Origin: Cyanidioschyzon merolae
Taxonomy: Eukaryota
DNA: 64,000 nucleotides
Reading direction: 5' to 3' (one strand)
Assembly: GCA_000091205.1 (NCBI GenBank)
Contig: AP006499.2
This document shows, one piece after another, positions 5,122-47,460 of the stretch. The notes beneath the pieces are model-generated. The model searched no databases, was not told the DNA's origin, and worked only from the letters and a program-made list of their open reading frames with translations. How positions within the stretch are numbered: position 1 is the first letter of the stretch; every line of letters begins with the position of its first letter. Made by a program: the position numbers and the translations under genes.

Positions 5122-5770
5122 TTTTAAAGTTTGACAGAACGTTTACATTGACTATTGATTCCAGGTTGTGGGATGGATATTGGCATTCGGGAAAGAGCCC
5201 ACCATGCTGCGCCCTGCTTCGAAGTTGCATCACGCAGACTTATTCTTGGATATACTGGTCGTTTCATGAGCTCCATCGTTCGCCGAGCCTGCCCTAGTGG
5301 CCCACGGTAGCGCCCATAGCGTTTGCGCGGATGCATCGCCGAGACAGAGCGGCTTTGCCATACCGCTGGAGGCGTCGGCTTGAGGCGTGGATCATCCGAC
5401 ACGGGATCGGGATTCATCGTCATAACGTGAGCCTGCGAGCTGCGCAGAAAGACACACTGCCTGCCGGAGCGGAACGCGATATGCTACGAGTCCACCGCGA
5501 CCAGGGCGACGCCCAGACACAGTATACCCGCTCCTAGTCCCAGAATAAAGTGCGTTGCGGACGAGCTGCTCGGGTCTCGCCGCATCACGACTCGATGCAG
5601 AGGCGTATGGAGCGTCTACCAGACAGACTCGTTAGGCTCTAGGGACATTCCGCATAGAAGGTAAACTTTCGAAAATACGGAAAACTTTGCTCCTTCCAAC
5701 GTTTACAGTAGAGGGAGAAAGAAAATTTAAAAAGTTGCTATTTAATGGTTAGTTTCGCTTCCTTTATGGG
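5122..5770 (+). repeat. Copy A of a non-coding dispersed repeat family, lacking the 5' ~200 bp module. Shares conserved blocks with copies at 25941-26585, 37474-38290 and 51131-51985.
   Basis: Conserved blocks read directly in the sequence: 'tgacagaacgtttacattg', 'ggatatactggtcgttt', 'gctcctagtcccagaataaagtgcgttgcggacgagctgctc', 'ggtaaactttcgaaaatacggaaaac', and 'gttgctatttaatggttagtttc'. No conserved ORF. Confidence 0.7.
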
Positions 5771-10000: not shown

Positions 10001-12646
10001 ATAAGCTGCACACCGTGCTGGAAGTGGGGATCCCGGCTACACAGTACACGCACGAGCGAAGCTGCACGGTACACGCTCATGATCAACGATGTGGATGCGG
10101 GTGTAATGGTCTATTCTCAGAGTGTCACATTCTCGAAGAAGCAAGTTCAAGAGCGCGAGACATCATTTTTCGAAATTTATCTGAGCCATGGCGGTCAATG
10201 GCCACAAACATTTGAAGCGGTGTTCCTGTCGGAGGAGTGGCTCGGGGCAGACCAGAAATACGTCCTCCAAACAGATGCCCCTGGTCCGCCACAGAGCCAG
10301 CTAATACGGACGCCACTTCTGAACCTGCGCCTGCTGGGCCGGGAGGCACTCGGATTCGGCCTCGGTGCAGCGTGCGACACATTATTTCCAGGTCTGTCGC
10401 ATCTCAACCCGATCCAGACGCAAATTTGCCACAGCGTTTTGCACTCGGACGCGAGCTTGTTCATTGGGATGCCACCGAACGCTGGGAAGGATCTTGTGCT
10501 GTTACTGTGCATCCTGCGTCAACTACGCGCCAAGCGCAGTGCCCACTGCCGAGTGCTCTACCTCAGTCTTGCTTCGAATAATATGGATGACATGGACGCA
10601 TGTCTCCGCAGGTGGCTCTCCGTGTTGGATGTTCGCCTGCTTGACCTGAGCGATGGCTGCAAGGCAGGGATTCATGACCCAATGGTCGTCTGTTGCGTGA
10701 CGCCCAAGCAGCTGCTCGACTGGCTCCTCGATAAAACAGAGTCAGCGATTGCGTTCTTTGACAGTGTGGATCTTGTGCTGGTCGACAACATGCACCACTT
10801 GAACGAGGACAATGGTGTACTCGCTGAGAGTGCTCTAGTTGCCGTGCGTGCCGTTACTCGAAGATCGACGCGACTGGTTGCCTTTGGGAATCTCATTGGT
10901 AACGCAATGGATCTGGCTTCATGGCTATCTACAAGTCGTATGTACAATTTCGCACTGGAGCATAGCCCTACGCCGATAGCGTTTAGTGTGATCCCTTTCC
11001 GAGAGCGGAACATCGCAGAACGTTTTGCGCGAATGGATCAAACCATTCGTAAGATCGTTCAACATCACAACGCGGAGCAAGTTATTGTGTTGGTGCAGTC
11101 GGATAGGGAATGCATCGAGACCGCTCGTCGGCTGCTGCACGTGGCTGCAGCTGACGGGACATCCCATAGAGCGGGCATAGAAGGACATCTACTAGATGTT
11201 TCTGTTCTGAATGCGGATATTGGCCAGTTCCTTGCTTTCGGGATCGGTGTTCTGGTAGGTGAAATGAATAACGTGCTTCAGAGCCTCATGCAAGATCTTT
11301 TCTCAGCCCGGAAACTTTCATGGTTAGCCGTAGCTTTTCCACTTCTAGATGAGCTGCGATGCAGTGCACCAGTTGTTGTTGTGAAAGGCACGGAGTGGCA
11401 CCTTACAGCTGGCGGAACATGGAAGCATTTGAGTCCAAGCGTACTATTGAAAATCCTGCAACGCTGCGGTTGCCAGGAAATACAACGCGGTTCATTTTAC
11501 CTCCTCGCTTCAGAATCGCGCAAGGCATACTTTCAGAAGCTACTAGAATGTGAAGTTCCCGTCGAGGCAGGCATTCGCACTGAGGAAGACCTTGGCTTGT
11601 TTCTGTGTCAGATGGTTGCAGGCGATCTTGTGTCGGAGCCAGAGGAGAGCTTTCAGCTGACGCGGGAAACGTATCTTTCGCGGCGTCTGGCCCAGAATCC
11701 GAGCTGGTATCCCTGGGTAACCGCGAACGACAATGAAATGCGAACAGTTGTGGAAACGTCTCTCTTGAGGATGGCCAGCATTGGTCTCCTTAGAATCCAA
11801 GCGAGTAGCTCAGCGGTGCTAACCCTCGAACCAACCACGCTTGGTAAGCTGGCTTGTTTCTTCTCTCTGAGACCAATTTTTTTCGAACGCATTAACAATT
11901 TACTGAGTGAGATGAATCAAGAAAAACGCGAGCAGAAAGCCCATGATTTGGCGCATGAAGACCATGCTTGTATGCCCGATTCTTGCAAAGTGGAGGATTC
12001 GATTCCAGACGCTGCAAAGGAAAGCGACAATGGCCCGGCGACCCAAGTGATTCCATATAATGTCGTCCGCTTCGAGACGGCCGCCAGAGAACTGCTCTAC
12101 ATAGGTCTGCGCGAGATAGCACCGCACTGCTCGAGCATGGAGCTGGCGGTGGCGGCGGCAGTCGTAGCGGCTGAAAAGGGTTTTGATCCAGCCGTGTCCC
12201 CCTTGCTAAGATTCGCTAAGGTAGAACGGAAGGAGCACAGGCGAAGCTCCCATGCGCGCCCAACCCCTCGAATTGCGCTGAACGTTAGCAGCGTTGAACG
12301 TGTTCAGCTGAACTGGATCCAGGTGAGTCTTTGCTTTCGGAAAATCGAGCTGGAAGGCATCAACAGGACTCAGCCCGAACGCATATACGCATCGGCACTA
12401 CCTGCTTCCTGCCCGGTTACCAAATTGGTCTGCTTCGCATTTTCTGCTGTGACTGAAGAACTCTTGGGATATGGGATTTCGGAAGAAACTGTTCTCCACG
12501 TAGATCTTGAACTACGGCGACATATTCCCGCTGGTGGCAAACTCAAGCTGAAGCTTTTCTGTTTTCCGGTGGAGCTGACGCATGAAATAGGTGTGAGCTT
12601 GAGCGACGAGCAAATGAGCGCGTCGTCTTCCACCAGAAAGCAGTAA
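7052..12646 (+). CDS. Ski2-like DExH-box RNA helicase with two tandem helicase cassettes (Brr2/ASCC3 family). The first cassette is canonical; the second is strongly degenerate. Single exon, 1864 aa.
   Basis: Cassette 1 carries motif I '[18 protein letters not shown]', motif II '[21 protein letters not shown]', plus SAT (LSATLPN) and the Ski2-type QIFGRAGRP motifs. Cassette 2 has a degenerate motif I '[10 protein letters not shown]' and a degenerate motif II 'LVDNMHHL'. Overall length and architecture fit the Brr2/ASCC3 family. The N-terminal region before motif I is only about 275 aa. Confidence 0.8.
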   Translation: [1864 protein letters not shown]

Positions 12647-13283
12647 GGCTACCATAAACCGCGCAAGGCACCCTACGGTGAGATCATCTGTTGGTGCACC
12701 TGTGCATGACTGCTGGTCCACGTCGAGTTGAGACTCTGATTCCGCGTAATTACGAAGAATCTCTCGGGCTGACGACGAGCATGGAAAGCAAAGCGTTCAA
12801 CTGCAGACGCTCCCAAACTCTGTGGATGCTCCCGGGTACATGCCAAGAGGTCACTCAGAAGTACTTGAGGTCGCAATTACTCTGCATACGAGACTCAAAG
12901 CCGACAATGGGAAGCAATCGCAAACTTGTCAGGGGACATGGCGATCATGAATGTAAAAGCACGCAGGTGCGGGAGAAAACTCTCGAGCGTGCCGAAATAA
13001 TTTTCTAGCATGCAAGAGATCCGAAATGCGGTATCCCTCACCGCAGGCTGCAGCAGGTACCAGCATCAAGCCAAGGGCATTTGGCATCCCTAATGACTAA
13101 TTTTCCTCGAGACGAATGCGTTGACGAAAACCCTGCGAATGCGAGTCATCTAGCGATTTGAACCGCATTCACTGCGCTGGTAAATGTGCGCATGCTCACT
13201 AGTCCCCACAGCGAAGTGCATTTTGTATACGGCTGCTATGGGCAAGTCTGCAATGACTCCGACTCCGGCCGAACGTCGCACTT

Positions 13284-14219
13284 TCAGACACTGGAACGCG
13301 CGCCAGCTTTCCGGTCATGTCCATGGCAATCTGCCGGAGAGTCCATGAAGCAATGAATATCCGGCGGAAACGAGGCATCTGGCCACTGATCATCGCCACC
13401 ATGGAGCCACTGATCTCGTTTCTCCGCGATGAGCGCGAAATACTTCCGATCCTCATCGGGAACATGCAGAATCTCTGCGAGCTTTAACCAGACGAGTTCG
13501 TCTTGAGGCCGCAATGGGTTTCGTGAGCTCGTCGATAATCCAGGAATGTTGGCGCCGCTTGAAGTATTCGTGTCTATGGGTCCACGGTGCACTCCATCGA
13601 GCAACGTTGCTGCGACGTCGTCAGGGCTGCATACCTGCTCAACCTCGGAGTCCGACGACCACGAATCAATGACGGATGTCGACCCTTCGGAATCAGTGAT
13701 GGTGGCGTCCTGGTCCGCCGAAGAAACGCTTAGAGCGAGCTGCGCAGCAGCGACAAACTCGACAGCCTCTACGGGCTGCGAGCGCTCCTCGGTACTCGTC
13801 TCCGGTTCCTCTATTCGAGTTGAGGCACTCGTTACACAGGTTAGTAAACCCTCAACTCTCGGTTCGAAATCATCGGAAGTTGCACCCTGAGCATATGAAG
13901 CTCTACCCTCTCGAAGGATGCTGAGCTCGCTAACCAGCCGGTTCCGCAACGTCACTGCGGACACATAATCTCCCTTTAAAGACTCTGACTCTTGCGCGAC
14001 TTCAACGCTCCCCTTGACTGATTTTTGGAACAGAAGCAGCCTGCCAAGCGGGCGATAAATGGATCCCGAACCAAAGGATCCCATTTCTAGACAGCACACT
14101 GCTTCGGTCTGATGCTGATAGGAACCGAAAGAAACAAGTCGGTAATGGACTTCGATGTGGAGGCTGTTAACGCGCACGTTAGGGACGAGCGGCCGATCGG
14201 ATGCTGTCGTTCGGTGCAA
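13284..14219 (-). CDS. Hypothetical acidic, Ser-rich protein (311 aa); no recognisable domain.
   Basis: Long ORF in a gene-dense stretch, lying divergent to the UBTD-like gene about 58 bp away. Composition is coding-like and low-complexity acidic. No family signature recognised. Confidence 0.35.
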   Translation of the reverse strand: MHRTTASDRPLVPNVRVNSLHIEVHYRLVSFGSYQHQTEAVCCLEMGSFGSGSIYRPLGRLLLFQKSVKGSVEVAQESESLKGDYVSAVTLRNRLVSELSILREGRASYAQGATSDDFEPRVEGLLTCVTSASTRIEEPETSTEERSQPVEAVEFVAAAQLALSVSSADQDATITDSEGSTSVIDSWSSDSEVEQVCSPDDVAATLLDGVHRGPIDTNTSSGANIPGLSTSSRNPLRPQDELVWLKLAEILHVPDEDRKYFALIAEKRDQWLHGGDDQWPDASFPPDIHCFMDSPADCHGHDRKAGARSSV

Positions 14220-14276
14220 GGCACGCGGACGTCCGAAACTTGAACGTTAAAGCGAATATCGCTGAGCGTTTCGCTC

Positions 14277-14831
14277 TTGGAGGTTTCTGACTCGTTTCGA
14301 GCAGAGCACTGCACCTCTGTGGATCTTGTGATAGAATATGGGGAAATGACACTTGAGAAAAAAGAGTACGGTGCGCCTGGTTTCTGGCCTGGGTCGATGA
14401 TAGGCAGGGTGCACGCGTTCGAAACGCCGGCCCCGCTGACGAGAGCACAGCTCGACCGGCTTCGCGACGAGTTCTTTGAGACCCGTACAGAAGGCCACCT
14501 GGAAATTTGGACTGCTATAAGGGCTGCTTCTCATGCACAAGAAGCGGGCGACGATGAGTTGGCATACGCAATTATCACGGCTGTTGGGATCCTGCCTGCG
14601 GAGGTGGGTCCTGCCGGTGAAGGGCTTGGCGAACGTATCCCCTTTGCTGAACAGCCTCTGGACCGTCTACTCGGGATGATATGCGGTTGTTGTTTTCCGG
14701 CTTTTACGCGTTACCGGACGTTGGAACGTGTATATGACCAGCGTGGTTTTCTGTACGAAACGCCGAAAGAGTGCATTGCGACACCGTCGAACGTGCTGCC
14801 AGATGAAAGCACTGAAGCCTCAGCACGCTAG
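14277..14831 (+). CDS. UBTD1/UBTD2-like (ubiquitin domain-containing protein) homolog. Only the N-terminal domain is present; no C-terminal ubiquitin-like domain could be found.
   Basis: 'LDRLRDEFFETRTEGHLEIWTAIRAASHAQEAGDDELAYAIITAVGILPAEVG' aligns with the human UBTD2 block '[54 protein letters not shown]'. 'ERVYDQRGFLYETP' aligns with UBTD2 'ECYDELGNRYQLPVY'. The ORF stops before where the UBL domain would be expected. Confidence 0.6.
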   Translation: MEVSDSFRAEHCTSVDLVIEYGEMTLEKKEYGAPGFWPGSMIGRVHAFETPAPLTRAQLDRLRDEFFETRTEGHLEIWTAIRAASHAQEAGDDELAYAIITAVGILPAEVGPAGEGLGERIPFAEQPLDRLLGMICGCCFPAFTRYRTLERVYDQRGFLYETPKECIATPSNVLPDESTEASAR

Positions 14832-15489
14832 AAAGCAAAATGGATGGCGGTCTCCTGCAAGGCAATATCGAGAGGCAGGTAGCCTGCTAAGTCGCGCGCC
14901 GTTTGCGCGGCGCGTTGCTTTCGCAGCGCATACGAGGCTCTTCACCGAGGCTATTTGTTAGTTGATCCGTCGCCTGCGAGCTTGCGCAGTTCTGAGGTTA
15001 CGGGCGAAACGCCTCCGACAGCATGATGGATACGAAAAGATTTTGCAGACGCTACTTTGAGAGCGAGATTGTTGCTCATGGCTCTTAGCAGAAACCGTGA
15101 AAATGTTCCTTGGCGCCGTTCGTTGCACCGATGTCAGACGATAGTCTTTCAGTTGAATTTTGTTTCAACCTCAATGCAGTGTATAGCAGTAGATCGAAAT
15201 TACTGTGCAATGTACCCTATAGATCGTGTACGATTTGTCTGTAGGATATATTCTTTATTAAACAGTGCAAGCAGATCTGCATTCCTCATTCAGCTCTATC
15301 ATACAACGGTGTTCAGAATGTTGAGGAACACCGAAAGGAAGAGTTATATGCGCTCCGCGCCGAAAACCGATCTGCCCAGAGCGTGCCTCCGGTCAAATGT
15401 AGAAAACGATCCTTTGATTACCTTTTACGGAAGGCAAAATCAACGACAGTAACAGCTGCGGGTGTCTCTGTTGCTCTACAGCTTGTTTT

Positions 15490-16048
15490 TTGGTTCTGAA
15501 ACCCCCGCGATACAGCCGCGAAAAAAGCGCCCTAGTTCATTCACGGCCAACTTGCACAGAAATCGCAATAACGGAATTCCTGGAACGTCGCGATCGATAT
15601 GGAGCACATCTACGTCGGTTTGATTTTTCAGTCGATGAGACTGCCTTCGGAAGAAGCTGTCGGAGCGGTTATGTGTATTTTCGGAGCGGAGCGCCTGTTG
15701 TATGTACGATCGAACTCGAAGAGAATGACGACATCATCATTTGTTCTAGCCGCCGTGGATTCATTAGGCGGCCTCAGTTTCGCTCGTAGAGAAGGCTCGT
15801 CCAACAGCGACCACCGCCTGGAGTCATTGAAAGCATTTCCCCTGACGTCTGGCGAAATACTTCTACTGGACCACGTTGCATTCAACTATCCCCAATGCGT
15901 CCGAGCCTTTGGTAAATCTATCGAAGTACAGCTGCTTTTCGTTCCCTCTTTCTCTCCGGGGTTCAACACCATCGAAGGGGAGATTTCAATCGTGAAACGT
16001 AATAATCGCTCCACTGGACGAATCGGTGGAGCCTTCAGCACACGGTGA
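15490..16048 (+). pseudogene. Tc1/mariner (IS630-Tc1-mariner, DDE_3) transposase relic, frameshifted.
   Basis: Two overlapping ORFs in different frames. The first carries the first-Asp region 'FDFSVDETAFGR'. The second carries 'ILLLDHVAFNYPQ' (the DNA-x-H block) and 'FVPSFSPGFNTIEGEISIVKR' (the LPPYSPDLNPIE...W..K block). Homologous peptide fragments recur at 17.1, 30.2, 45.6 and 47.3 kb. Confidence 0.7.
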
Positions 16049-16099
16049 CACGTCGGGACACATGTCGTCATGCTTCCGCGAGTCCTTCTCCCTCCGGGA

Positions 16100-16600
16100 A
16101 GGTCCTCACCAAAGGACATAAATAAGTGCATTCATTTTCTAAAATAAATTACCTAAAGAAAAAGCATGGATATGGAAGTTGAGGATCCTTGGGGGTCGTC
16201 ATCGGTGGCTGCCGGTAAAAAACGAAGAAAGTCACTTTTTCCCGATCATTGAGCACAGAAGAGAAAGTGAAGAACAAAAAGAAGAGGGCAGATAGGCGAG
16301 AAGAGGTATTTGCAGGACAGGACGACGACGAGACCCTGGTGACACGGAGGGCACAATTTCTAGCAATCCTTGCAATGATGAGTTCAACCAGCGGCAACTC
16401 ACGCAAGGAGTTTGTGAGCCGAGATTTCAATGTCGCCATCATTATCAGACGTTGTGTCGTGCTGAAGACGAGACCCGACGAGCTGCAGCGATCCTACTTC
16501 GCGAGGCAGCCTCTCAGGCTCTAAGTGTGCTGTGCAGAACTGAAGCCGAGAGCAGGTGGCCGGTCGAAAATGGCGGGGAGGCGTCTGTGAATGAGTATAT
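16100..16600 (+). mobile_element. Truncated 3' fragment of a TnpB/Fanzor-like element: the RuvC-III coding tail plus a conserved downstream non-coding segment.
   Basis: ORF 16249-16524 ends with 'FVSRDFNVAIIIRRCVVLKTRP', to be compared with 'FVNRDFNAAVNIRRYAVLENRP' at 53.6 kb. The downstream 'aggtggccggtcgaaaa...gaggcgtctg' is conserved with 53790-53850. The upstream 'gtgcattcattttc...gcatggatatggaag' is conserved with 31300-31350. Confidence 0.6.
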
Positions 16601-17099
16601 ATATACAGTTTTTGGCCGTGAGAAGTTTTTGCTTTACATGAAAATGTAAGATGAAATACTCGCTATGTTCCTATTTTGCGTTATTTTCGAACTGTTTGAT
16701 TAAATGCACAGTCTCGACATTCGAATTGCACCAGTAAATGCTTACGGATTCATAGGCAATTTTGGGATCCTCCGTCTCCCTTCCGGAGGATGTTCTTTGA
16801 CGCTTCGCAGCTGGAACTCTTGACGATCTCGGAATCGAGATGATTTGCGATGCACTCGAACAAGCAATCGTAAAATAGCTGATATGGTTATCCATTTCAT
16901 ACGTGCAAGCATATAGTCTTCTCCGTTCCGTATGTGCAGCAAGCTTACATCACGCATGTTTAAAGATTTTCTTGCTTCTATTTCAACGCAATTTGCTGGC
17001 GCAGCAATTTGCGTCGTTACATTGACGCAGAAAAATCATGATGTAGTTCCTTAACGACTTCTGCATTGGCTTACATAGAAAGTTTAATGAAACCATCAC

Positions 17100-17500
17100 G
17101 AAATATAATCGCATCCGTTCGAACGAGAAATCCTCCTTTCATGGTGGCCATCGACGAGACGTCTTTCGATATTAGCGAAATACCTTTCACGGGAAATGTT
17201 TTCAGAGACGTCGGTGCTTTCTGTTTGCGCGGAAACTGATTTTGAGCTCGCGCTCCAGTCAGAGCAATGATCGATTTCAGTGGAGAGATTGTCAGTGCTT
17301 CACACAAATGGAACGTAGACAAATCGAAAAGTCTCGATATTCCCACCGATAATTTTTTCATCAAGGACAACGCACCGTTCGACAAATCGTCTATTATACG
17401 GAACAGCATGCACTTGCACATGCAGCCGAAGGAGTACTTGCTAGCGGATCGCCAAGCTCAAGCCGATGATCGAACGGAAGGAGATAGGGCTCGCTAACGG
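17100..17500 (+). pseudogene. Tc1/mariner DDE_3 transposase relic, fragmentary and frameshifted.
   Basis: Plus-strand peptides 'MVAIDETSFDISEIPFTGNVF' (first-D block) and, in another frame, 'FFIKDNAPFDKSS' (DNA-x-H block). A conserved 'AIDILRLLTTELEGYERP' motif follows about 640 bp later at 17740-17830. The same spacing is seen at 30.2 to 30.9 kb. Confidence 0.5.
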
Positions 17501-18456
17501 AAAAGGTCACTCATGCTAGCCGCTTGTACCCGTCCAAAACATGGAGTGAACAATGAAGCATGCGTTTATGCGCGTCATGGTGGCTCTCGGAGGAGGTTTG
17601 GTGGATACACACGTAAACCTGAATAAAGCCATGTGTACCCGTAGAGAATGTCGCCACAAGGCTGGATACATGGATGCTGAAAATGACACGAGATGTGCAG
17701 ATCGCAGATACAATATGGCTGTGAAATGCATGAACAAGAGCCGGAAATTGCGAAATCAAGACAAACGCGCTGCCATCGACATCCTTCGATTGCTGACAAC
17801 GGAGCTGGAGGGGTACGAGAGACCACGAGTTTTTATAGCCAGAGATAGTAAAGTGGAAATGGAACAGTCACCGGAAAGCCCTCAAAAGCTGGTTTTCATG
17901 AGAGTTGGTAGACGCTCAACCTTAAGAGTATACTCCCGAGATAGCTGGGTGGACCAGTTCCATTTTAGTCTGCCATCGGTGCGAGGCCGAGTCAGGTGCA
18001 CTCAGATCTTACGAGTTTAAAGCTCCATCCAAAGAGGCAAATATCGGAAATGTTTCTGTTGTTTTCACTGTAAAACCAAGCTGAAAGCAGAAAATCTGAT
18101 CATTCCAGACACGATTCAGCATTTGAGGAGACGTACGTGATACGTGACGTGAACACTGGGCCTCGGACGGCAGGTCTACCGTTGTTAAAAATCGCGGACG
18201 AGTATCCGTGGGTCAGTTGCCAGCAGCAGCTTTCCCAGGTAAATACTCAGATCCATGAACACGATGTGTTACAGCTGGAGATTCGCTCAGAGCAGCTATG
18301 GATCATGGTCGTTGAAACGCAGTACAACTCTGCCTTCTGTTGCGTTGTCCGCGACGGCCCACCCAGTAGTTTCTAGAGGATTTTAGAAACTTACATTTCT
18401 CTATGTTGGATGTCAATGGTACCGCACAAGGTCTCCTGGGTCCAGAGGCTGTCTTT

Positions 18457-19302
18457 TCAGGGTGTCTTGGATACGTTTGGGTGTGACTCCTTTGCGGGTA
18501 ATGCCATGGGTGTCTTCCTGCGCAAAAGTCTCGAGAAATGCGCTGTACCACCTAGTCGTCCCACTGCAGCAGCTAGCGTCGATGCACCAAAGCGCTTCAT
18601 GGTTCTGTATGTTGGCGCTCGATCCGGTGGAAGGCGATGTGCGGCGATGAATGTTTTTAGCTCGACAAGGGTACGCCTCTTGTCATTCCAGTATCCATTG
18701 GGTCTCCGATGAGCTTTCAGTCCGAGTTGCTCAGCTACCTTGGGAAATCCCCCGTGTTTGCGGATCGCACGGATGAGATCTGAGCGATGATGAGCCGCCA
18801 GCTGCCCAGCTGTAGGCATCGTGTCCTTTGCCTCGAGATGTTCGGCGATGAAGCTTTGTAGTTCCTTGGCGAGATTATCAAAGTCTTTCCAGTAGTTGTG
18901 TGGCATCATGCGTCCACGCCGCAGATCGACCGCAAAAGTCACATATAAACTTCTTGGTTGAGAGACGCACGCAGGTTTCAGGTTCAGCTTCGCTGCTACG
19001 GCCTGCCAACCGCCGTGCAGTCGAATAGGGTAAAGTAGATCTGGTCGGGGAAAGCTTGCGGATATAAACTGTTGCTCGCTAGGTAGCTGGTTCAAATTAT
19101 CCCAACCGTTCAGGCGAAGAAACTCGCGGACTTCTTTCTCGAGGTTTGCAGCATCTTTCCAGTAACCCCGTGGTTTCCGTTTCCTCGTACCAGTCTCATT
19201 CTGCTCCCGTTGACTTTGAGGCGGTGTCAGTTCGCACTTGACCCCACACTTCAAGCGAGACGAAATCCTTGTGTGCGAGAGGTTCACGCTTGCTAACCAC
19301 AT
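18457..19302 (-). CDS. Unrecognised tandem-repeat protein with three ~70-aa repeats. Paralog of 61803-63110.
   Basis: The repeats are 'RKPRGYWKDAANLEKEVREFL...', 'PHNYWKDFDNLAKELQSFIAEHL...MPTAGQLAAHHRSDLIRAIRKHGGFPKVAEQLGLK' and 'RPNGYWNDKRRTLVELKTFIAAH...'. Consensus: P-x-GYW-x-D...N-L...E-L...F-I...LP(T/S)...L...R-x-DL-x-x-A-I-x-x-HGG...A...LGL. The same repeat architecture appears in ORF 61803-63110. Confidence 0.6.
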   Translation of the reverse strand: MWLASVNLSHTRISSRLKCGVKCELTPPQSQREQNETGTRKRKPRGYWKDAANLEKEVREFLRLNGWDNLNQLPSEQQFISASFPRPDLLYPIRLHGGWQAVAAKLNLKPACVSQPRSLYVTFAVDLRRGRMMPHNYWKDFDNLAKELQSFIAEHLEAKDTMPTAGQLAAHHRSDLIRAIRKHGGFPKVAEQLGLKAHRRPNGYWNDKRRTLVELKTFIAAHRLPPDRAPTYRTMKRFGASTLAAAVGRLGGTAHFSRLLRRKTPMALPAKESHPNVSKTP

Positions 19303-19469
19303 GAGAGCTTAGTCGGTCGCTTGTGACGTGGGATAAAATCCCGTACGAAAACGACGACTGGAGCGAATGGCTCTCGAGCCGACGCCCTCAACCGTGCGGC
19401 AATGCCATTCGGTCGCGGTGATGCATCCACACGGGAGCTACTGGCGCTATCGCGGGCGATCACTGTCGG

Positions 19470-19560
19470 CACTCGGGGCACGATGGAATGTATGAAGCGA
19501 CCAGTATATCCGAGAAGAAGTATGAGTTACGGAACTTGGAAGCAGGGAGTTTGATGGATG
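19470..19560 (+). repeat. Short ~90 bp conserved module 'ggcactcgg.gc..gat.g.a...tatccgagaagaagtatgRgttaYggaacttgga'. It is also the 5' module of repeat copies at 26398-26500 and 51131-51235.
   Basis: Direct sequence comparison of the three loci. Non-coding. Confidence 0.55.
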
Positions 19561-20810
19561 CTTCACTGCGCGCTGATATCAAGCACACTGTCGGGGAACG
19601 CATGCCTGTGTAGACGTTTTGCCCATTGTAAAAAACCTGTGCGAGGTTCCAAAGTCTACCATATGCGATGCCGCATTTATACTTCTTCCCAGCCTCGCTC
19701 GGTTGCGCTGGTGCGGCAGCAATTCTGCGTAGACATCGAGCACTAGTGTGCTATCTTTCCATCCTCACACGATCCGTGTGTGTGACCAAACTCCCAGGGA
19801 TCCGCGGATGCTGCCGGGAATCTTGGTATGGATCGGGCGCTCTTAGGGGATTTCTTCTAAAACTTAGGATTTGTACATATGACCAGACCTGCTTGGATGC
19901 GCACCTATCGATGACAACTTTGTCGTGGATCGAGCGCTCCATTGCGGGCAGGTCACGTACAGGCCATTGAACGAATCGATCCAAGGCGTTTCATACAAAA
20001 ATACGTTGAACTCGCCTGGATAGTTGCACAGTCGCCAAAATCATAACACAGAAATGCGCAGCCGCGAAGATTTTCTGGCGGTGTACAATCGGAGCAAGTC
20101 TGTCCATTATTGTAACGGCTGCGACTTCACGCGTACAGTTCATCCACATGGGTTCCAACCGTGTCGCGAGTCGCTGTCCTGGAGCGGAGCAGCAAAGCGG
20201 AACAGGAAATGCAACATGTACCGGCGAACAAGCAGTGCAGATTGCCTCGCGCAACACGATGATAGTGGTGAGGCTTTCGAGTCGTCCGGATTCGGAAAGG
20301 TGACGTCCCCCTCCCAGCAACTTCAGAGAATTTGCTCGCTGCTTGATCCAGCCGGCGATCATTTAGGAAAACGCGCATTCCGGATCCAGACCACTGGAAA
20401 TATAGCAAAAGGGACTGAGTTCAAGCTCTTCCACCACAAGACCGGCGGTTCACTCGAGCATAATCAAGCTAGATATGCTATTCGACAGAGAGCTCCATCA
20501 TTTTTAGGACTCAGGGAGACCAGCTGGAGGCTGCCTCTCTCTGGAAAAGCACCAGCACGCAGGACTGGTTCAAAAGCTACCCATGTCAAAATTCGCGTTA
20601 TGAAACTGAGCTGAAAATCAGCTCATCTGAACGAAGGTTTCCACGCTCAATTGGCCCATTCAGCAAGCCGCTCTGAGCAACCAGCTAACATTAAAGTCAA
20701 AAGTTGTACCATTTTCGTTGTAAACGCACACACGCCGCGAAAGCGAGTTCGTCACATGCGCCATTCGAGTGCTCACACACCGCGTCTCCTCCAGAACTGC
20801 AGTTGGCCCC

Positions 20811-22534: not shown

Positions 22535-23827
22535 ATGAATGAGGCAACTGCTATCGTGCCGATACAGGAGAACTCGGACTTTACACTTTATAACCTTCCG
22601 TTCGGTGTTTTTCGAAAGAAAGGGGAAGCTTCACGTGAAGCGCGAGTTGCTGTCGCCGTCGGACGAAATGTGCTCGATCTATGTGCGCTTGCTGAGACGG
22701 ACCTCTTCGAGGCTTGCAGTCCGGACACGCCGTTACGTGGCGCTGCGGCAGACGTTTTCGGACAGGAATCGTTGAATCGATTTATAAAACTTGGAGAGCA
22801 ATGTTGTTCGGAGACCAGACGTCTCGTTCAGCGCGCACTCTCAAGGGACAGCGGTCTCTGTCCGCAGCTGGAGCGAGCGTTGGAGAACTCGCGCGCAGAC
22901 GCTTTTCTCACCGCTCAAGACGTAGTAGACGTGCTACTGCCTGTAGAGATTGGTGATTACACGGATTTTTACGCGTCGAAAGAGCATGCATCCCACCTAG
23001 GCCAGATGATGCGCGGTCCTGGACATGAACTGACCCCGAATTATGTGCACTTACCGATTGGGTATCATGGACGAGCCTCTTCTGTAGTGGTTTCAGGAAC
23101 GCCGATCACTCGGCCTTGTGGGCAAATCAAACCTGAGGGGTCGGATTGTCCTGTGTTTAAGCCAACGGAACGCCTCGACTTCGAACTAGAGCTTGGCGCT
23201 ATCATCGGAAGGGATAGCATATTGGGCGAACGAATTCCCGTAGAGCATAGTCGACAGTACATCTTTGGATACGTGCTCGTTAATGATTGGAGTGCTCGCG
23301 ATATTCAACGCTGGGAGTATCAGCCTCTTGGCCCGTTCAACTCGAAGAATTTTGCAACGACGATTTCACCCTGGGTCGTGACACGCGAGGCTCTGGAGCC
23401 ATACCGCGTAGCGGCACCGCATCAGGATCCTCCTGTTTTGCAGTATCTGAATGAAGATGCGGGCCGAACGAACCTGGATCTGAATCTTAGCGTGATGCTG
23501 AATGGTATCACCATTAGCCAGTGCAATTTTCGGGGCATGTACTGGACCTTCGAACAAATGGTCGCGCACCACACCTCCACTGGCTGCAACTTGCGCTGCG
23601 GAGATCTCCTGGCGAGCGGCACAGTTTCTGGTGCAGAACCGAACACCTACGGCTCAATGATAGAACTGACCTGGGGTGGCAGACATCCGCTGAAACTGCC
23701 AAACGGAAAACAACGCACGTTCCTCGAAGACGGCGATGAAGTTGAGCTGCATGGGTATGCGGGAGCGGGCTCCCGCCGCGTCGGATTCGGACGCTGTCAC
23801 GGATGCATCCTACCTGCCGTCGTGTGA
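22535..23827 (+). CDS. FAH: Fumarylacetoacetase (fumarylacetoacetate hydrolase, tyrosine catabolism).
   Basis: N-terminus 'IVPIQENSDFTLYNLPFGVF...ARVAVAVGRNVLDL' matches the FAH N-terminal domain (canonical '[21 protein letters not shown]'). The C-terminal FAH fold blocks 'DFELELGAIIG', 'IFGYVLVNDWSARDIQ' and 'GDLLASGTVSG' are present. 430 aa, the typical length. Confidence 0.9.
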   Translation: MNEATAIVPIQENSDFTLYNLPFGVFRKKGEASREARVAVAVGRNVLDLCALAETDLFEACSPDTPLRGAAADVFGQESLNRFIKLGEQCCSETRRLVQRALSRDSGLCPQLERALENSRADAFLTAQDVVDVLLPVEIGDYTDFYASKEHASHLGQMMRGPGHELTPNYVHLPIGYHGRASSVVVSGTPITRPCGQIKPEGSDCPVFKPTERLDFELELGAIIGRDSILGERIPVEHSRQYIFGYVLVNDWSARDIQRWEYQPLGPFNSKNFATTISPWVVTREALEPYRVAAPHQDPPVLQYLNEDAGRTNLDLNLSVMLNGITISQCNFRGMYWTFEQMVAHHTSTGCNLRCGDLLASGTVSGAEPNTYGSMIELTWGGRHPLKLPNGKQRTFLEDGDEVELHGYAGAGSRRVGFGRCHGCILPAVV

Positions 23828-25610: not shown

Positions 25611-25940
25611 AACACAACCTGTTGTGCTCGCTGTCTATTCTCGTTCTCCAGTCGAACTGAATGAAAGCTAAAAGGCATCGCGGATGACAGTCGGACAGGA
25701 AACGCTCGACAATGAACCCTACCGGCTGACCGCAGCGATGCGAAGCGGCGCATCAGCGTACAGGCGCGATCGATCCCCTGAGCGCCGCGCGCGGCAGCGA
25801 AGGGTTCATGCGCCGCTGCTCGCCGCGATGCTCGCATCCGATCCGTTCAGAACTGTGGATAGAAAGCATGATCTAGTTTGTGAATATATGTCTATTAATT
25901 GCATATTATGTACTGATTCTGGTTGATAAGTGGTTTTTTC

Positions 25941-26585
25941 GATGACAAAAAAATTCGTTTCCATTGGCTATGGATCCCTGGTTGCGCGATGGATAATGGT
26001 ATTTGAAAAAGCGTCGATGATGAAGCACCTATGCTCAAGTTCCATTACCCACACTTCCTCTCGGATATACTGGTCGTTTTTTACATGCTACCATGTGCTG
26101 AATGCCTGCCGTGAAAACCCTCCGTGGTGCTTACACCCCTGGAGCAGAGCCATCACGGAGACAGAACGGCGTTGCCATCCGACTAAAGGGCGTCGTCTGG
26201 AATTGTCGTTCACCCGACATATGGTCGGGATTCGGGATCATTCTGTGAGCCTGCATGCTGTGCAGACAGACGTACTGCCCGAGGCAGCGCGAAGCGATAT
26301 ATAAATAGCTCACTGCGACCAGGGCGATGTCCTCAGTCGGATGGCGCAGCTGTTCTGTCTCCGTGATGCTTCTGCTTTAGCGGTATGAGCGCTACGGCAG
26401 GTGCTCACGGCAGGTACTCGGCGCAAGATAGCATGTACAAAACGGACAGTATATCCGAGAGGAAGTATGGGTAATGGAACTTAAAGGTAGGTGCTTCATC
26501 ATGGACGCTTTCCCCAAGGGCATTATACATATGCCGAATTCTGGGAAGCATGTTCAATGTAAAAGTTTTGTCATCGAAAAATCAA
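25941..26585 (+). repeat. Copy B of the non-coding dispersed repeat family, rearranged.
   Basis: Shares the 'cgatgacaaaaaaattcgtttccattgg', 'ggatatactggtcgtttttta' and 'cattctgtgagcctgcatgctgtgcagacagacgtactgcc' blocks and the 5' module 'tatccgagaggaagtatgggtaatggaactt' with the other copies. It contains a perfect 19-bp internal inverted repeat, 'catcacggagacagaacgg' at about 26150 against 'ctgttctgtctccgtgatg' at about 26350. It ends with an inverted copy of the 'atgacaaaac.tttacattg' block at 26555-26580. Confidence 0.65.
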
Positions 26586-27149: not shown

Positions 27150-29546
27150 GTGAGCATAGGCCGAAGAAGACGCGCTCCAGGGCGAAAAGCGCCCCACAAA
27201 ATTGATATGGTGCGCCGCAAAGACTGGAAACAGCGCAAACAAAGCAGCATACCTTCTCTTTACCGGGATGTCTTCGAGAGGGCCGAAAGGGAGTTTGCGA
27301 ATGAGCAGCGAGAATATGTGTTAGCGTTGGTCGCCGAAAACCGAGCACGGTTACAACGCGAGAGATCTGGGACGCCACTGCCTGTGGCCTCCGCAGAGAA
27401 CGAAATCCTTCGACGCAGAATCGACCAGTCACCAACCAGTCGCGACGATAATGGAAAGCTACGACTCCAGAGATGCCGGAAAATTGTTTTTCCGCATGTC
27501 GACCCTCTTCCGGACTCAACAGCGTATATTCCAATTAGAAGAAATTTCGCGGCATCGGACATTGTCACGAGCAACCTTTTCTTGCCCTATCTCGGGGACA
27601 CAAAGAGGAATATCGAGTCTGCATACCAAATTATTTCTGCGGTAGATGAAATTCGTCGACTGCAAGAAAACCAGCACGACGGGAGTGGTGATGAGATAGA
27701 CACCGGGTCGCTGGCTGCCTGGAGACGAGGATTTTCCCATGGAATACCAGTGCCGCAAAACTTGGGGCCAGTGTTAGAGTGCGGCTCGCTGTCCATAATG
27801 GAAGAGCGAGATTCTGTTGCGTTGTGGACCTGGATGCAGTCGCAGAAAATGGCGCTCTACTTGCTTCGAAAGACTGCGAGCCAATTCGGTGAAGTCCAGG
27901 AAGCGCTGCAGTATTTAAGCACATACACTTCAACTAGCCTCACGGATCTGAAGTCAGTGCTTGCCGAGCAAGAGATTCAGAACAGAGAACAAGTTGCACC
28001 AGTCCATGGTCGGTCGCCAAATCAACATTGTTCAAATGTATGTCTTGCCGAAGACAGCACGGATTCCCTGCTGGGTATCTGCGAGTCCGACACGATGCGC
28101 AGCTTGTTTTGTAGGCGATGCTATATGTACGACTGTGCAATGCACGGCTCACATCACCCACTGCCAAGAGTGAGAAGACCACGTTTAGGATTGTTCGAAT
28201 TCCCAAGTGCAGAGGTCACATTTTGTAGTGGTCGCTGCTTTCGACGACTCTGGCCGAACGGTATCGGTAGTATCGAAGGTGAGCTGCGCTCAGATGCCAC
28301 CCGAAGATCGGAGACACCAGAAAAAGCGGATCGTATCGATTTTGATCTCAATCAAGTGGTGTGTGCCGCATACGAGTTGCCCTTGCTCCAGACGGGTCAG
28401 GAAATATTTGATAATGATTTTTGTCGTATCCGGCAAGTTTGCCTTCCATGGCGATCATGCGTGGAATGTGCGATGCTCGCGATGAAATATTATCGTGAGG
28501 GCGGCATGCAGAAAAAGCCCTCTGGACAAGTGAAAAGCAACGACATGGTGCAGACTAACCATGAAGACGCTGCCTCTCACCAGACGATGAGTGCCGCTTC
28601 CGAACTGAGACCTAATGCAGTTCGGCACGTTACCAGTACTGCAGCGCCCGACCACAGGAATGACGCCAGCTCCAGTGGCCTTGTCAGCGATGTTAGCCAC
28701 TTCGCACTCGCAAACGGAAGTGTCGACCGCCTCCACGGACAGCAGAGACGCTCCTGTGATATTCGGCTGTGCAGGGCTTCGCGTCCTATGAACCAATTAT
28801 CTGCAGGACGCTCGTTCGTGTATCGCCCATGCGATCACGAGGGCGCTTGCTCGAAGGAAACCTGTGAGTGTGTCATCAAGGGGCGGTTCTGTGAAAAATA
28901 CTGTTGCTGTGCATCGGTTGTGATGGGTGAATCGTGTCCCAGGGCCTTTAAAGGCTGCAAATGTCGAACGAAATGTAACAACAAGAAATGTCCCTGCTTT
29001 GCGGCGGACCGCGAATGCGACCCGGACTCTTGCACCGGCTGTGGTGCTCGCGACCCGGAGGATAAGCACAGGACTTGTGAAAACATGAACTTACAGCTGG
29101 GCATCCAGAAACGACTTTTACTCGGTCGCTCAGATGTCCACGGATGGGGTATCTTTGCCAGTGCGGTCATTCCCAAAGGTGCCTTTATTGGAGAGTACTG
29201 TGGCGAAATTGTGAGCCAGCTCGAGGCGGAATGGCGAGGCCGGATTCATGATCATACAACTGGCGTATCATACCTTTTCGATCTCAACGACGAGCAATGC
29301 ATCGATGCCCATCGGGCCGGCAAGCGCACAAAGTTTATCAATCATAGCCGGATTCCGCCTCGAAAGAATTGCGTGGTGCGTTATCGGATTGTGAACGGGG
29401 ATATTCGAGTTGCGCTCTATGCAGATCGTCAGATCGAAGCAGGCGAGGAGCTATTCTTCGATTACGGCTATGAATCGGGTACGAACGCGCCATTGTGGGC
29501 GCGCGCTGAGGGCGGAAGCTCTAGCACGCTAGCGAAAGCCTCTTAG
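27150..29546 (+). CDS. Enhancer-of-zeste-type histone-lysine N-methyltransferase (PRC2 catalytic subunit-like; CXC + SET domains).
   Basis: Cys-rich CXC region 'CSKETCECVIKGRFCEKYCCCASVVMGESCPRAFKGCKCRTKCNNKKCPCFAADRECDPDSCTGCG', followed by the SET domain 'GWGIFASAVIPKGAFIGEYCGEIVSQLEAEWRGRIHD...YLFDLND...IDAHRAGKRTKFINHS...NCVVRYRIVNGDIRVALYADRQIEAGEELFFDYGY'. This is typical of the E(z)/EZH family. Confidence 0.9.
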   Translation: MSIGRRRRAPGRKAPHKIDMVRRKDWKQRKQSSIPSLYRDVFERAEREFANEQREYVLALVAENRARLQRERSGTPLPVASAENEILRRRIDQSPTSRDDNGKLRLQRCRKIVFPHVDPLPDSTAYIPIRRNFAASDIVTSNLFLPYLGDTKRNIESAYQIISAVDEIRRLQENQHDGSGDEIDTGSLAAWRRGFSHGIPVPQNLGPVLECGSLSIMEERDSVALWTWMQSQKMALYLLRKTASQFGEVQEALQYLSTYTSTSLTDLKSVLAEQEIQNREQVAPVHGRSPNQHCSNVCLAEDSTDSLLGICESDTMRSLFCRRCYMYDCAMHGSHHPLPRVRRPRLGLFEFPSAEVTFCSGRCFRRLWPNGIGSIEGELRSDATRRSETPEKADRIDFDLNQVVCAAYELPLLQTGQEIFDNDFCRIRQVCLPWRSCVECAMLAMKYYREGGMQKKPSGQVKSNDMVQTNHEDAASHQTMSAASELRPNAVRHVTSTAAPDHRNDASSSGLVSDVSHFALANGSVDRLHGQQRRSCDIRLCRASRPMNQLSAGRSFVYRPCDHEGACSKETCECVIKGRFCEKYCCCASVVMGESCPRAFKGCKCRTKCNNKKCPCFAADRECDPDSCTGCGARDPEDKHRTCENMNLQLGIQKRLLLGRSDVHGWGIFASAVIPKGAFIGEYCGEIVSQLEAEWRGRIHDHTTGVSYLFDLNDEQCIDAHRAGKRTKFINHSRIPPRKNCVVRYRIVNGDIRVALYADRQIEAGEELFFDYGYESGTNAPLWARAEGGSSSTLAKAS

Positions 29547-30129
29547 CAAGATCCGTGAAGAGAGACGCTACATTCCGGTATGGTTGGAGAGATACAATAG
29601 GATTTTGCTGGGAGCCGAGATGCCTGCAAAGGCGCCGCAAAGCTGCTCTGCGTCCATGTGAGAACTGCAACTGCAACGCATTCACCGTTGTAGCGAGCGC
29701 CCTGCGGAAGGCTCGACCCCCGACTGGGTCACTATACAAGTCTCAGATAAAAATGGAGCATTGAACTGCTAGCACTGTTGCTAGCGTTCAATTTTTAGCC
29801 CAATCATTTCTTAGATGCGCATCCTCCGCACTCAAACTAAAATAATAAAAGTTTACAGGTTCACTCGTGGTTTTTTTAGATTCTCGTTCGTTTTTCCGTG
29901 GTAGCTTGTTCGACTCTTTGTTGCTGGAATGCGTTTCTTTGTCGAAATCATAATGATTCACGACGCCATTGAACAAGGGTTCGTAAAGTACCCGATTATA
30001 TTATCCAGTTGATACGTCCAAGATTCCATTTTTCTCCTTTCTTTGCGTCTAGTACGATGAAACAGCGCATTCTTCAAGTGTTTGACCTTTCTGCTTCAAG
30101 ACAGCTGGAGCGCGTAGCAACTTGCACCG

Positions 30130-30400
30130 CTGGATTGACGACGACGAAGAAAATTCGACATCGTCCCTTGAATAGCGTTTCGTAAACGCACGCCAAACGC
30201 TCACTGAACCAATCACAGCAAGTAATCGATGCGGTTCGAAAAGCAAGTCCTTCCCTCTTGATCGCCATCGACGAAACGGGATTCCGCCGCAATTATAAGC
30301 TATCTCTCACGGGACACGCTCCCAGAGGCACCCATCTCATTTTCCGCGCGGAAAAGGTTCTTGGACTAGAACTAGAGTCGTCGCTGCGATCGCTTCCACT
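30130..30400 (+). pseudogene. Tc1/mariner DDE_3 transposase fragment.
   Basis: Plus-strand peptide 'LLIAIDETGFRRNYKLSLTGHAPRGTHLI' (first-D block). The motif 'MNILLLLKTELEGQEN' follows at 30890-30990, matching the same spacing seen at 17.1 to 17.8 kb. Confidence 0.5.
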
Positions 30401-31259
30401 CGGGATTCCGTCACCGCTTTGAGCCTGGGGGCGTACACGGATCGAGATCTCTCGAGCGCTTTCACAACCTGGAGCTTCCTTCTGGTACTTGTTTCAGCAT
30501 GGTCAACATAGCGTTCCGTGAATCCTCTATCGAATAGAACAGCGAGCACTCGGGCGCGCAGCAGACATAGTACTCGCCAAGTAGTCACCCAGCTCAAGCA
30601 CGTCATCGTAGAGTTCGCCGTCGGACCCGGAAACGGAGGAGCGAACGGACAGGACCCTTTTCTGGCTGTCAAATTGGCATGTGCCGAACGATGAAGAAAG
30701 GGTTCATGATCTGCAGGGCGACCCTTTGAGGAACAGTTTTCGGGTATATCGGGGAACACTTGACCACAATCAGATGTCATCGCCGCGATGAGCGCACCGC
30801 GACTTTACGCGAGGAAGACGCAAATGGCAAGCAAAGCGTAGATCGCCTCTCCCGTTCGAGCATTAAATGCGTGAGCAGCAGCCGGAAGCAGTGAAATGGT
30901 GGCTTTGACACTGCCATGAACATCCTTCTACTTCTGAAAACGGAGCTAGAGGGACAAGAGAATTCTGCGTTGCTACAGGCGCATATGAGAGAGACAAGGG
31001 AAGTAGTCAAACATCATGCCCACCAAGACTGGTATTGACGAAAGTGAGAAGCGACCCAAAGCCTAGTCTTTTCTCCCGAGTTAGAGGGTCGGTCCTCGTT
31101 TGTTCAGAAGTGAGTGTAGATCTGCCTCCACGTTGGGGGCCTATTAATGAAATGATTCATAATCCGCGTCCTCCTGCTGGCAAACCTGCTCTTTCTACTT
31201 ATGGTCTATCACCTCAATTTAGTTCCAATCTCAGGTGAGCGTCATCGAATGCTTTTTCG

Positions 31260-31700
31260 CAGTTTTCAGCAGGAGCATTGGAGTGCATTCATTTTGAAGG
31301 AATGAATAATCCAAGGTGAAGCCATGGATATGCAGGACAGAGATCCTGTTGTCCCAGTGTTGCCGTATACGACCAATAAAACGAAAAATCTATTTCACGC
31401 GAACCATCGAGCGAAAAGAGCATAGAACGAACAAGAAATAGAACTGGGGAGATGGGCGATAAAAGGTGTTTGCTGGACTGGACGATGCCGAGACTGAACT
31501 TGCACTGAATACACGAGTTCGATGAGTCCCTGCATTGATGAGTTCAACCTGGTTCAATCAATACAAGAGGTTCACGCAGCGTGACTGCAACGCTGCTAGC
31601 AGTATCAGACGATATTCGATGCTCAAGACGGGACGCGAGGAGCTGACACGATCCACACTTGTTGGACAGCCTCTCAGGATTGAAGTCTATGGCGAGATGC
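31260..31700 (+). mobile_element. Second truncated TnpB/Fanzor-like 3' fragment (degenerate RuvC-III tail plus conserved flank).
   Basis: The 5' boundary block 'gtgcattcattttgaagg...gccatggatatgcagga' is shared with 16113-16190. 'gcattgatgagttcaacctgg' is shared with 16375-16395 ('gcaatgatgagttcaaccagcgg'). The peptide is 'FTQRDCNAASSIRRYSMLKTGRE'. The downstream 'gacagcctctcaggattgaagt' matches 16503-16525. Confidence 0.55.
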
Positions 31701-45539: not shown

Positions 45540-45620
45540 GACATCAAATTCTCGATTTCGCTCGAAAGACATATCCCTCCCTCTTGATGGCCATCGACGA
45601 GCCGGCATGAGTGAGCACGA
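45540..45620 (+). pseudogene. Very short Tc1/mariner DDE_3 first-Asp fragment.
   Basis: Plus-strand 'SLPLMAIDEPA', to be compared with 'LLIAIDETGF' at 30240 and 'MVAIDETSF' at 17130. Confidence 0.3.
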
Positions 45621-47179: not shown

Positions 47180-47460
47180 AATTATTCCACAATGTGGAAT
47201 GGTGTTTTCTGAGCCTTCTATTCGAGTTCGATCGTACATTTAACAGGTTAACTGCTCTGCAAATACCCGGATAAGTTGTGACGGTTTCGTCCGAAGGACG
47301 TCTCATCGACCGAAAACATAAATGGACGTCCCTGTGTTTCATACCGATCGTAATGTTCCAGGAACGCTGTCGTTGCGATTGGAAGGAAGATGCCATTGCT
47401 TGAACGATGACTCTTTTTGAGATTGTATCCCAGTGTTTTCAGGATCATAGGCGCGACTTG
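47180..47460 (-). pseudogene. Tc1/mariner DDE_3 transposase relic, minus strand.
   Basis: ORF 47248-47448 (-) reads '...TAFLEHYDRYETQGRPFMFSVDETSFGRNRHNLSGY', which is near-identical in motif order to '...TEFLERRDRYGAHLRRFDFSVDETAFGRSCRSGY' at 15.5 kb. Confidence 0.55.

Follow-up and report, generated by a model that had tools for sequence, protein, structure and literature searches.

The locus described here lies in a 64,000-nt stretch of Cyanidioschyzon merolae contig AP006499.2 (assembly GCA_000091205.1; hereafter the window), within an intergenic gap bounded upstream by a UBD-domain gene (14319-14831; Pfam UBD, E 4e-20) and downstream by a minus-strand open reading frame (ORF; 18457-19302). 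GC content falls from ~0.55 to ~0.47 over 15-18 kb of the window. A first-pass annotation had described the gap as one island of relics, comprising two frameshifted pieces of a Tc1/mariner-type (DDE_3) transposase, a tail of the nuclease Fanzor and a recurrent 'ILRLLxTELEG' motif. Self-comparison of the window by blastn, together with alignments, split its relics into two repeat families, F1 and F2, and positions 15141-17982 were found to hold two distinct elements in tandem rather than one, an F1 unit followed by copy C of F2. Both units join part of a DDE_3 transposase gene to part of a Fanzor1 gene.

Structure of the F2 family

Four F2 units were identified in the window, each ~1.37 kb long and all on the plus strand, with a mean identity of 67% in alignment. 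Copy A occupies 1513-2881 (TA at 2882-83), copy B 29737-31116 (C-TA at 29735-36, TA-G at 31117-18) and copy D 45077-46448 (TA at 45075-76 and 46449-50), while copy C, at ~16626-17982, was delimited by alignments of 4, 7 and 12 copies and by analysis of terminal inverted repeats (TIRs). In the unit, a DDE_3 gene of which the first two-thirds remain runs out of frame into the final ~125 codons of a divergent Fanzor1.

The DDE_3 frame of the F2 consensus reads '...PPLFVAIDETAFHSSMIPLTGYAPRGSR...SGTCFIMDNIAFHKSS...RTEYSP' and matched Pfam DDE_3 at E 1e-10 to 4e-10 (40-42 bits), covering profile positions 3-101 of 146 only; the third catalytic residue is deleted. Just upstream, Pfam gave sub-threshold matches to HTH_Tnp_Tc3_2, HTH_33 (E 0.012) and HTH_32 (E 0.024). 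The corresponding relic of copy C (17096-17437, plus strand), which carries two in-frame stops, gave no Pfam match on its own; by tblastn it aligned over 120 codons to the consensus that matches DDE_3, in agreement with the first-pass assignment of 17100-17500 to this family. 'VAIDETSF' contains its first Asp (D at 17153-55) and 'IKDNAPF' its second.

Past the frameshift, the F2 consensus reads '...KPVIVGYGTGRGNGGGHRGEPSVPVKGMYRAMKQAFTRHRAALGGGVLVDVWEHLTTAKCHRCEGRTEAVYKEDENGKRSVDRNFRLCMKCVDNSRKQRNRDFNAAINILRLLTTELEGQERPAY...stop', and this second part matched the Pfam family Cas12f1-like_TNB, the TnpB/Fanzor zinc ribbon, with 33.4 bits against a cut-off of 26.3 bits. The consensus also fits, as 'LTTAKCHRCE...CMKC...RNRDFNAAINIL', the C-terminal signature [TS][TS]-x-x-C4 zinc finger-x(5,50)-RD that typifies Fanzor1 (Bao and Jurka 2013, PMC3627910). 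In hhalign, a profile of the F2 tail matched a Fanzor1 profile with E 8.8e-5 and a probability of 60% over 121 collinear columns, the tail running parallel to the last ~130 residues of CMe-1-type Fanzor1 from 'VVAYGAGR' to 'NRDFNAAINI...RP'. An earlier F2 profile of six rows had reached a probability of 14% over 30 columns, and the match became stronger once 12 copies were added. Furthermore, the tail 'NRDVNAARNMLELLKSGLKE' of the Fanzor encoded by PUl-1, an element of Pythium ultimum considered below, resembles the F2 tail 'NRDFNAAINILRLLTTELEG'. Sequence searches of the PDB with the F2 tail, either as a single consensus or as a 19-row profile, returned no Fanzor, TnpB or Cas12 chain. In copy C the Fanzor1 fragment spans 17448-17840 (plus strand); it opens with the strand equivalent to 'VVAYGAGR', continues with the TT-x-x-C zinc ribbon and reaches RuvC-III.

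The recurrent motif falls within this tail, where its consensus is NRDFNAAINILRLLTTELEGQERP. By tblastn (E 1e-17 to 1e-26) it was recovered at all three sites of the first-pass annotation, namely 17755-17825 in copy C, 2652-2730 in copy A and 30890-30975 in copy B, and at a fourth site that had not been listed, 46200-46291 in copy D. Because of the zinc-ribbon match, the Fanzor1 signature, the hhalign collinearity and the likeness to the PUl-1 tail, we conclude that 'ILRLLxTELEG' is the segment following the RuvC-III aspartate in a second, divergent Fanzor1, and not a transposase C-terminus. The motif had been listed apart from the Fanzor tail, a separation that no longer holds, as it is itself such a tail, from the RuvC-III region of a second family's Fanzor. 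It lies 640-656 bp downstream of the 'AIDETSF/AIDETGF' block in copies C and B, close to the ~650 bp noted previously for two loci with 'IAIDETxF'; in copies A and D the block is mutated. The accompanying suggestion that block and motif belonged to one ancestral element, with the motif near its 3' end, is upheld by their placement in the same F2 unit, on either side of the same junction. A reading of 'AIDETxF' as the RuvC-I motif of Fanzor, for which 650 bp to the tail would suit the RuvC-I/RuvC-III spacing, was rejected, as the block and ~100 residues match DDE_3 positions 3-101.

The junction between the two parts, 'LKPVIVGYGAGR', is identical wherever it is readable: in the four window copies and in about eight from related metagenome genomes, at loci L001, L005, L006/7, L008, L009, L010 and L011. 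F2 copies were found in related metagenome genomes at L001, L005, L006/7 and L008-L015, of which L012-L014 represent one locus in three samples and contain the tail only; a related-locus search with the F2 consensus protein matched two loci. The junction-bearing loci come from several metagenomes and have differing flanking genes, which argues against segmental duplication of one locus as the source of the copies. The linkage of DDE_3 to Fanzor is thus intrinsic to F2.

A frameshift at the junction is required even in the 12-copy consensus, so that the F2 master copy was already a non-coding chimera, as expected of an out-of-frame deletion. Single called ORFs (P0134, P0136 and P0138) do span the junction, and their presence in some metagenome copies (P0136 reaches 280 aa) could point to a functional or domesticated fusion, present or recent, of a DDE_3 domain with a Fanzor zinc-ribbon tail. 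We regard such a fusion as extremely improbable: every F2 and F1 copy in the window bears stops or frameshifts, the consensus is itself frameshifted, the DDE_3 domain is without its last third and the Fanzor part without RuvC-I (deleted in both F1 and F2), and no conserved intact ORF was found in databases of 5.8 billion proteins and 1.84 billion cluster representatives.

Ends of the F2 element

Conservation among 7, and then 12, F2 copies begins and ends sharply, at points ~1.38 kb apart. The left end of the consensus, ACACTCGTGTCAGATTAAAATGGAAC, equals the reverse-complemented right end, ACACCCATTTCAGAATAAAATGGGAC, at 21 of 26 positions, a score that a single shuffle out of 2000 attained. 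An alignment combining 23 F2 ends gave cTA followed by CACcCgTGTCAGAttAAAATGGAAC, with a TIR of ~25 bp and conservation that stops outside the CTA; in copy C the right TIR, GTTCCATTTTAGTCTGCCATCGGTG, was placed by this alignment at 17958-17982 (plus strand). Just outside the TIR, 10 of 22 ends show an exact TA and most others are one substitution away from it, and the TA-to-TA length is 1369-1380 bp in copies A, B and D. Where TA survives, the outer bases are C-TA...TA-G. CTAG is the target preference of IS630, and the F2 context resembles it.

Based on the consensus end match and the joint end alignment, we conclude that F2 is a mariner/IS630-type TIR element, with a TIR pair enclosing both the DDE_3 and the Fanzor fragments. 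Reconstruction of a consensus had been proposed in the first-pass annotation as a check on a composite origin: the F2 consensus does hold both fragments within TIRs, but an intact two-gene copy was not found in the data searched. Fanzor1 genes are associated with a structured guide RNA (omega-RNA) at the 3' end; in the 12-copy alignment of F2 the 3' region shows no more conservation than the rest of the unit, and Rfam gave no RNA family in 14500-18600.

Structure of the F1 family

In C. merolae, Fanzor1 has been described as a single family, CMe-1A, with a 3169-bp consensus and ~150 copies at ~80% identity to it; CMe-1A has no TIRs, its class is given as unknown, and its first 635 bp correspond to another repeat, TE-N2_CMe (PMC3627910). 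The CMe-1A and PUl-1 sequences used here were taken from the supplement of Bao and Jurka 2013 (PMC3627910), and CMe-1A was compared with the window by blastn.

The F1 unit of the locus (15141-~16646, plus strand) is a decayed, internally deleted DDE_3 + Fanzor1 unit, defined by a blastn match to 47753-46513 on the minus strand and by a four-copy alignment with L004 and L009. L004 comes from the same metagenome as contig L002, which is 99.9% identical to window positions 12163-18222, and L009 belongs to a related genome. Where F1 abuts F2 copy C, its right boundary carries an uncertainty of ~20 bp, the border falling within 16626-16648. The order within the unit is a DDE_3 pseudogene, a 120-bp spacer, a Fanzor1 start codon and an internally deleted Fanzor1.

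Sequence homologous to CMe-1A is found on both sides of the DDE_3 block and at the tail. The left segment (15141-15184, plus strand) matched CMe-1A consensus 787-831 with 84% identity over 45 bp. The transposase pseudogene follows at 15188-16048 (plus strand), with its catalytic core at 15568-16045, as determined from Pfam DDE_3 and frame translations. Within it, ORF 15599-16048 matched Pfam DDE_3 (E 1.3e-7, 32 bits against a cut-off of 28.6 bits), and the first-Asp block 'FSVDETAF' lies in a different frame (15490-15789), which implies one frameshift near 15720 and bears out the relic previously annotated at 15490-16048. All catalytic residues are recognizable in the frameshifted gene: D (VDET), D (LLLDHVAF) and E (NTIEGE). 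The spacer and Fanzor1 start (16124-16229, plus strand) matched CMe-1A 869-969 with 74% identity over 107 bp, so that ~940 bp encoding DDE_3 stand in F1 between the CMe-1A-equivalent positions ~831 and ~869. The Fanzor1 ATG is at 16167, and the start 'MDMEVEDP...' compares with 'MEKEVEDPGGP' in the CMe-1 protein.

The C-terminal tail, at 16252-16524 (plus strand) after an internal deletion of ~400 codons, was recognized by blastn to CMe-1A and by tblastn to other tails. It reads '...SRKEFVSRDFNVAIIIRRCVVLKTRPDEL', with the RuvC-III motif 'RDFNVAIIIRR' at 16420-16452. The Fanzor tail reported for the island is indeed present, as 16346-16587 matched CMe-1A consensus 2839-3083 with 69% DNA identity over 247 bp (blastn E 6e-20); tblastn with the F1 tail matched further tails at 31418-31681, 46613-46702 (minus strand) and 53522-53743. 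F1 and CMe-1 Fanzor1 keep 'NRDFNAA' and have lost the zinc-ribbon cysteines, as in the published CMe-1 protein. Because Pfam finds only a weak precomputed DUF8286 in CMe-1-type proteins, their identity as Fanzor rests on the published description of CMe-1.

At least five F1 copies exist as units, and the full layout is seen in four (two in the window, L004 and L009). The second window copy (46451-47794, minus strand) has DDE_3 at 47370-46962 and the Fanzor tail at 46702-46613, and the TA at 46449-50 is common to its right end and F2 copy D. A third, 5'-truncated copy (31118-31790, plus strand) directly follows F2 copy B, with ~100 bp of the DDE_3 3' end, the Fanzor ATG at 31326 and the tail at 31418-31681; it has the same deleted Fanzor as the full copies. 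The left end of F1 is TA followed by GTCTTTCAG (TA at 15142-43) and the right terminus is ...TG followed by TA. Its termini are weakly defined: the TA-flanked ends, and a short inverted GYCTTTCA match with the 3' end of CMe-1A, are no more than suggestive.

F1 and F2 are also found in contact with one another. F1 precedes F2 copy C (16626-16648), F2 copy B precedes the truncated F1 (31117-31118), and F2 copy D faces an inverted F1 with which it shares the single TA at 46449-50. In L009 (1700-5585), F2 on the plus strand is once more followed by F1 on the minus strand. This adjacency is not a higher-order unit; it looks as though the two families co-accumulate, or prefer to insert beside each other, in the few gaps that a compact genome tolerates.

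It had been put forward as a counter-scenario that the DDE_3 and Fanzor fragments themselves belong to unrelated elements piling up in gene-poor gaps. The three relative arrangements in which F1 and F2 adjoin are probably of that kind. As an account of what lies within each family, co-accumulation is highly improbable and is contradicted by the shared junctions, since for each family the same DDE_3/Fanzor junction recurs in every readable copy, at unrelated loci and in different genomes, and since the TIRs of F2 enclose both parts.

Relation of F1 to CMe-1A

The closest relative of the F1 tail in these comparisons is a CMe-1A copy at 51348-53942 (plus strand), which has an internal deletion (consensus 3-1553 + 2124-3169; 83-87% identity by blastn). 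Its Fanzor1 pseudogene (52255-53776) has three in-frame stops and one frameshift and carries all three RuvC motifs, ADPGNTN, DEFRTS and NRDFNAAVNIRR (NRDFNAA), a complete set found there and not in F1 or F2. The disabling N-terminal frameshift lies in a long A-run, agaaaaaaaacaaaaaaatag, at window positions 52300-52320.

F1 and CMe-1A are homologous in the Fanzor start, the tail and the 3' region (69-84% DNA identity). They differ in that only F1 has a DDE_3 gene and that F1 is without the first 786 bp of CMe-1A, which include TE-N2_CMe. The Fanzor of F2, in contrast, belongs to a separate and much more divergent lineage, in which the CxxC...CxxC ribbon lost in CMe-1 is kept.

The left end of F1, at 15144 (TA followed by GTCTTTCAGTTGAA...), corresponds to an internal point of CMe-1A, ~787 (window ~52140), preceded there by 'GTATA'. 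Given this match, CMe-1A may combine two parts, a 5' module of 786 bp and a Fanzor unit. It is conceivable, though we hold it doubtful, that CMe-1A is a transposase-less descendant of a mariner/IS630-Fanzor1 composite whose ancestral state F1 preserves; this reading draws on the position of the F1 left end and on the DDE_3 gene standing exactly at the 37-bp gap of CMe-1A. If it were true, a Fanzor1 lineage would have continued to amplify and to maintain intact ORFs once its DDE partner was gone, which would point to mobilization in trans or Fanzor-dependent maintenance. The F1 DDE_3 may have been ancestral to CMe-1 or captured later.

One apparently intact CMe-1A-type Fanzor1 ORF of 752 aa (P0001) was found in L001. 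It contains three extra tandem repeats of ~75 bp from consensus 2117-2195, '...ATQEVEDNDFIVD...' (L001 9153-9374), just upstream of RuvC-I.

Comparison with known elements

PUl-1 and PUl-2 of P. ultimum are Mariner elements that encode both a Mariner transposase and Fanzor1 (Bao and Jurka 2013, PMC3627910), and later surveys list autonomous Mariner/Tc1-Fanzor associations (PMC10530073, PMC10711439). The layout of PUl-1 is a TIR, a 308-aa transposase, a ~130-bp spacer, Fanzor1, ~140-150 bp and a second TIR, with TA flanks (PMC3627910). Its transposase matched Pfam DDE_3 at E 4.5e-17. F1 shares the gene order and strand of PUl-1 and reproduces its transposase-spacer-ATG geometry (120 vs ~130 bp), and F2 is alike at both ends: its first Asp lies ~530 bp in from the left end, and ~140 bp separate its Fanzor stop from the right end. 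The PUl-1 distance between TIR and transposase ATG is matched as well. PUl-1 is intact at 3620 bp, whereas F1 and F2 are deletion derivatives of 1.4-1.5 kb full of stops. The proteins share little identity (22-26% in DDE_3, 23-39% in the Fanzor tail), and the hosts are an oomycete for PUl-1 and a red alga for F1 and F2.

F2 also compares with deletion derivatives of IS630/Tc1/mariner elements, in which a single internally deleted master copy is amplified. The likeness extends to the DDE_3 remnant, the ~25-bp TIRs beginning CAC..., the TA flanks and the C-TA-G context. Unlike such derivatives, the interior of F2 includes a fragment of an RNA-guided nuclease gene, and the unit is longer than typical MITEs (miniature inverted-repeat transposable elements). 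A published MITE survey reports none for C. merolae (PMC3964958). F1 and F2 are relics and not active members of the IS630/Tc1/mariner group, because the DDE_3 of F1 is frameshifted and that of F2 has its third catalytic residue deleted.

Origin of the two families

In view of the homologies, shared junctions, repeat structure and decay, we consider it likely that the region is a transposon graveyard made up of two long-dead, non-autonomous mariner/IS630-type derivatives of DDE_3-Fanzor1 composite ancestors. In the intact composite that we infer, a Fanzor1 gene would have followed the transposase gene directly and in the same orientation, as in PUl-1. F2 would have arisen by one deletion, beginning about two-thirds into the transposase gene and sparing the ~125 codons ahead of the Fanzor stop, and the resulting out-of-frame chimera would have retained both TIRs and been copied to TA (C-TA-G) sites, with TA duplication, by a transposase acting in trans. 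F1, for its part, would have retained the whole transposase gene and lost ~400 internal codons of a CMe-1-type Fanzor1. The composite ancestor suspected in the first-pass annotation is favored by the TIR pair that encloses both fragments in F2 and by the match of F1 to PUl-1 in order and spacings.

Several observations weigh against a composite ancestry. No intact composite, F2-type Fanzor or related DDE_3 transposase was found among the 5.8 billion proteins or 1.84 billion cluster representatives, where the F2 Fanzor and the two DDE_3 families had pseudogene ORFs as their only relatives. Neither the published CMe-1A consensus nor its near-complete copy in the window has a DDE_3 gene or TIRs (PMC3627910). 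The inverted-repeat signal of F1 is only a short match, at 7 of 12 positions. For F2, an inverted-repeat search in single copies gave nothing consistent, and the two ends within single copies match at only ~55-65%, so that the TIR rests on the multi-copy consensus; a match of this size is expected at the level of decay of F2. Lastly, the 'CTA' could belong to the element, as its outermost bases, and not represent target plus duplication.

Some of the same evidence bears on a different history, in which chance insertion nested a Fanzor element with a DDE_3 transposon unrelated to it, once each for F1 and F2, after which deletions fused the parts and the fusions were amplified, no autonomous two-protein element ever having existed. 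The F1 DDE_3 block sits between CMe-1A ~831 and ~869 much like an insertion, CMe-1A itself has no DDE_3, and F1 and F2 demonstrably land side by side, at three window loci and in L009. We nevertheless think such secondary chimeras unlikely. Two families that have diverged in both parts share gene order, strand and PUl-1-like spacings, and the F1 DDE_3 block alone showed no TIRs of its own on inspection of the four-copy alignment. Functionally, moreover, this is how a composite arises, and the distinction is partly semantic.

Descent from composite ancestors would not imply a new architecture, because Fanzor1 in Tc1/mariner transposons is already documented (PMC3627910, PMC10530073). What is new for C. 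merolae is a second, extinct Fanzor1 lineage, a mariner-type family bounded by TIRs and TA, and a transposon class from which CMe-1 could plausibly have originated. These families should be of use in repeat annotation of Cyanidiales genomes and in reconstructing the movement of Fanzor between transposon hosts. Because everything at the locus is pseudogene, there is no bearing on active genome-editing enzymes.

Neighboring genes and other repeats in the window

The minus-strand ORF 18457-19302, called a repeat-protein gene in the first-pass annotation, encodes 281 aa with three internal repeats of a '(R/P)xGYW(K/N)D...L..E(L/V)..F' module, and Pfam gave no significant match to it. ORF 22535-23827 is an exact match to fumarylacetoacetase XP_005538094 of C. 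merolae 10D. The long intronless ORF 27150-29546 (plus strand) looks by eye like an E(z)-type SET-domain histone methyltransferase, and F2 copy B begins ~190 bp past its stop codon.

Copies of TE-N2_CMe, a repeat with ~70 copies, were found with 77-86% identity to the published consensus at 5132-5764, 19373-19563 (minus strand), 25940-26327 with 26325-26576 (minus strand), 37475-38281 and 51025-51215 (minus strand). The pair at 25940-26576 is a head-to-head inverted duplication.

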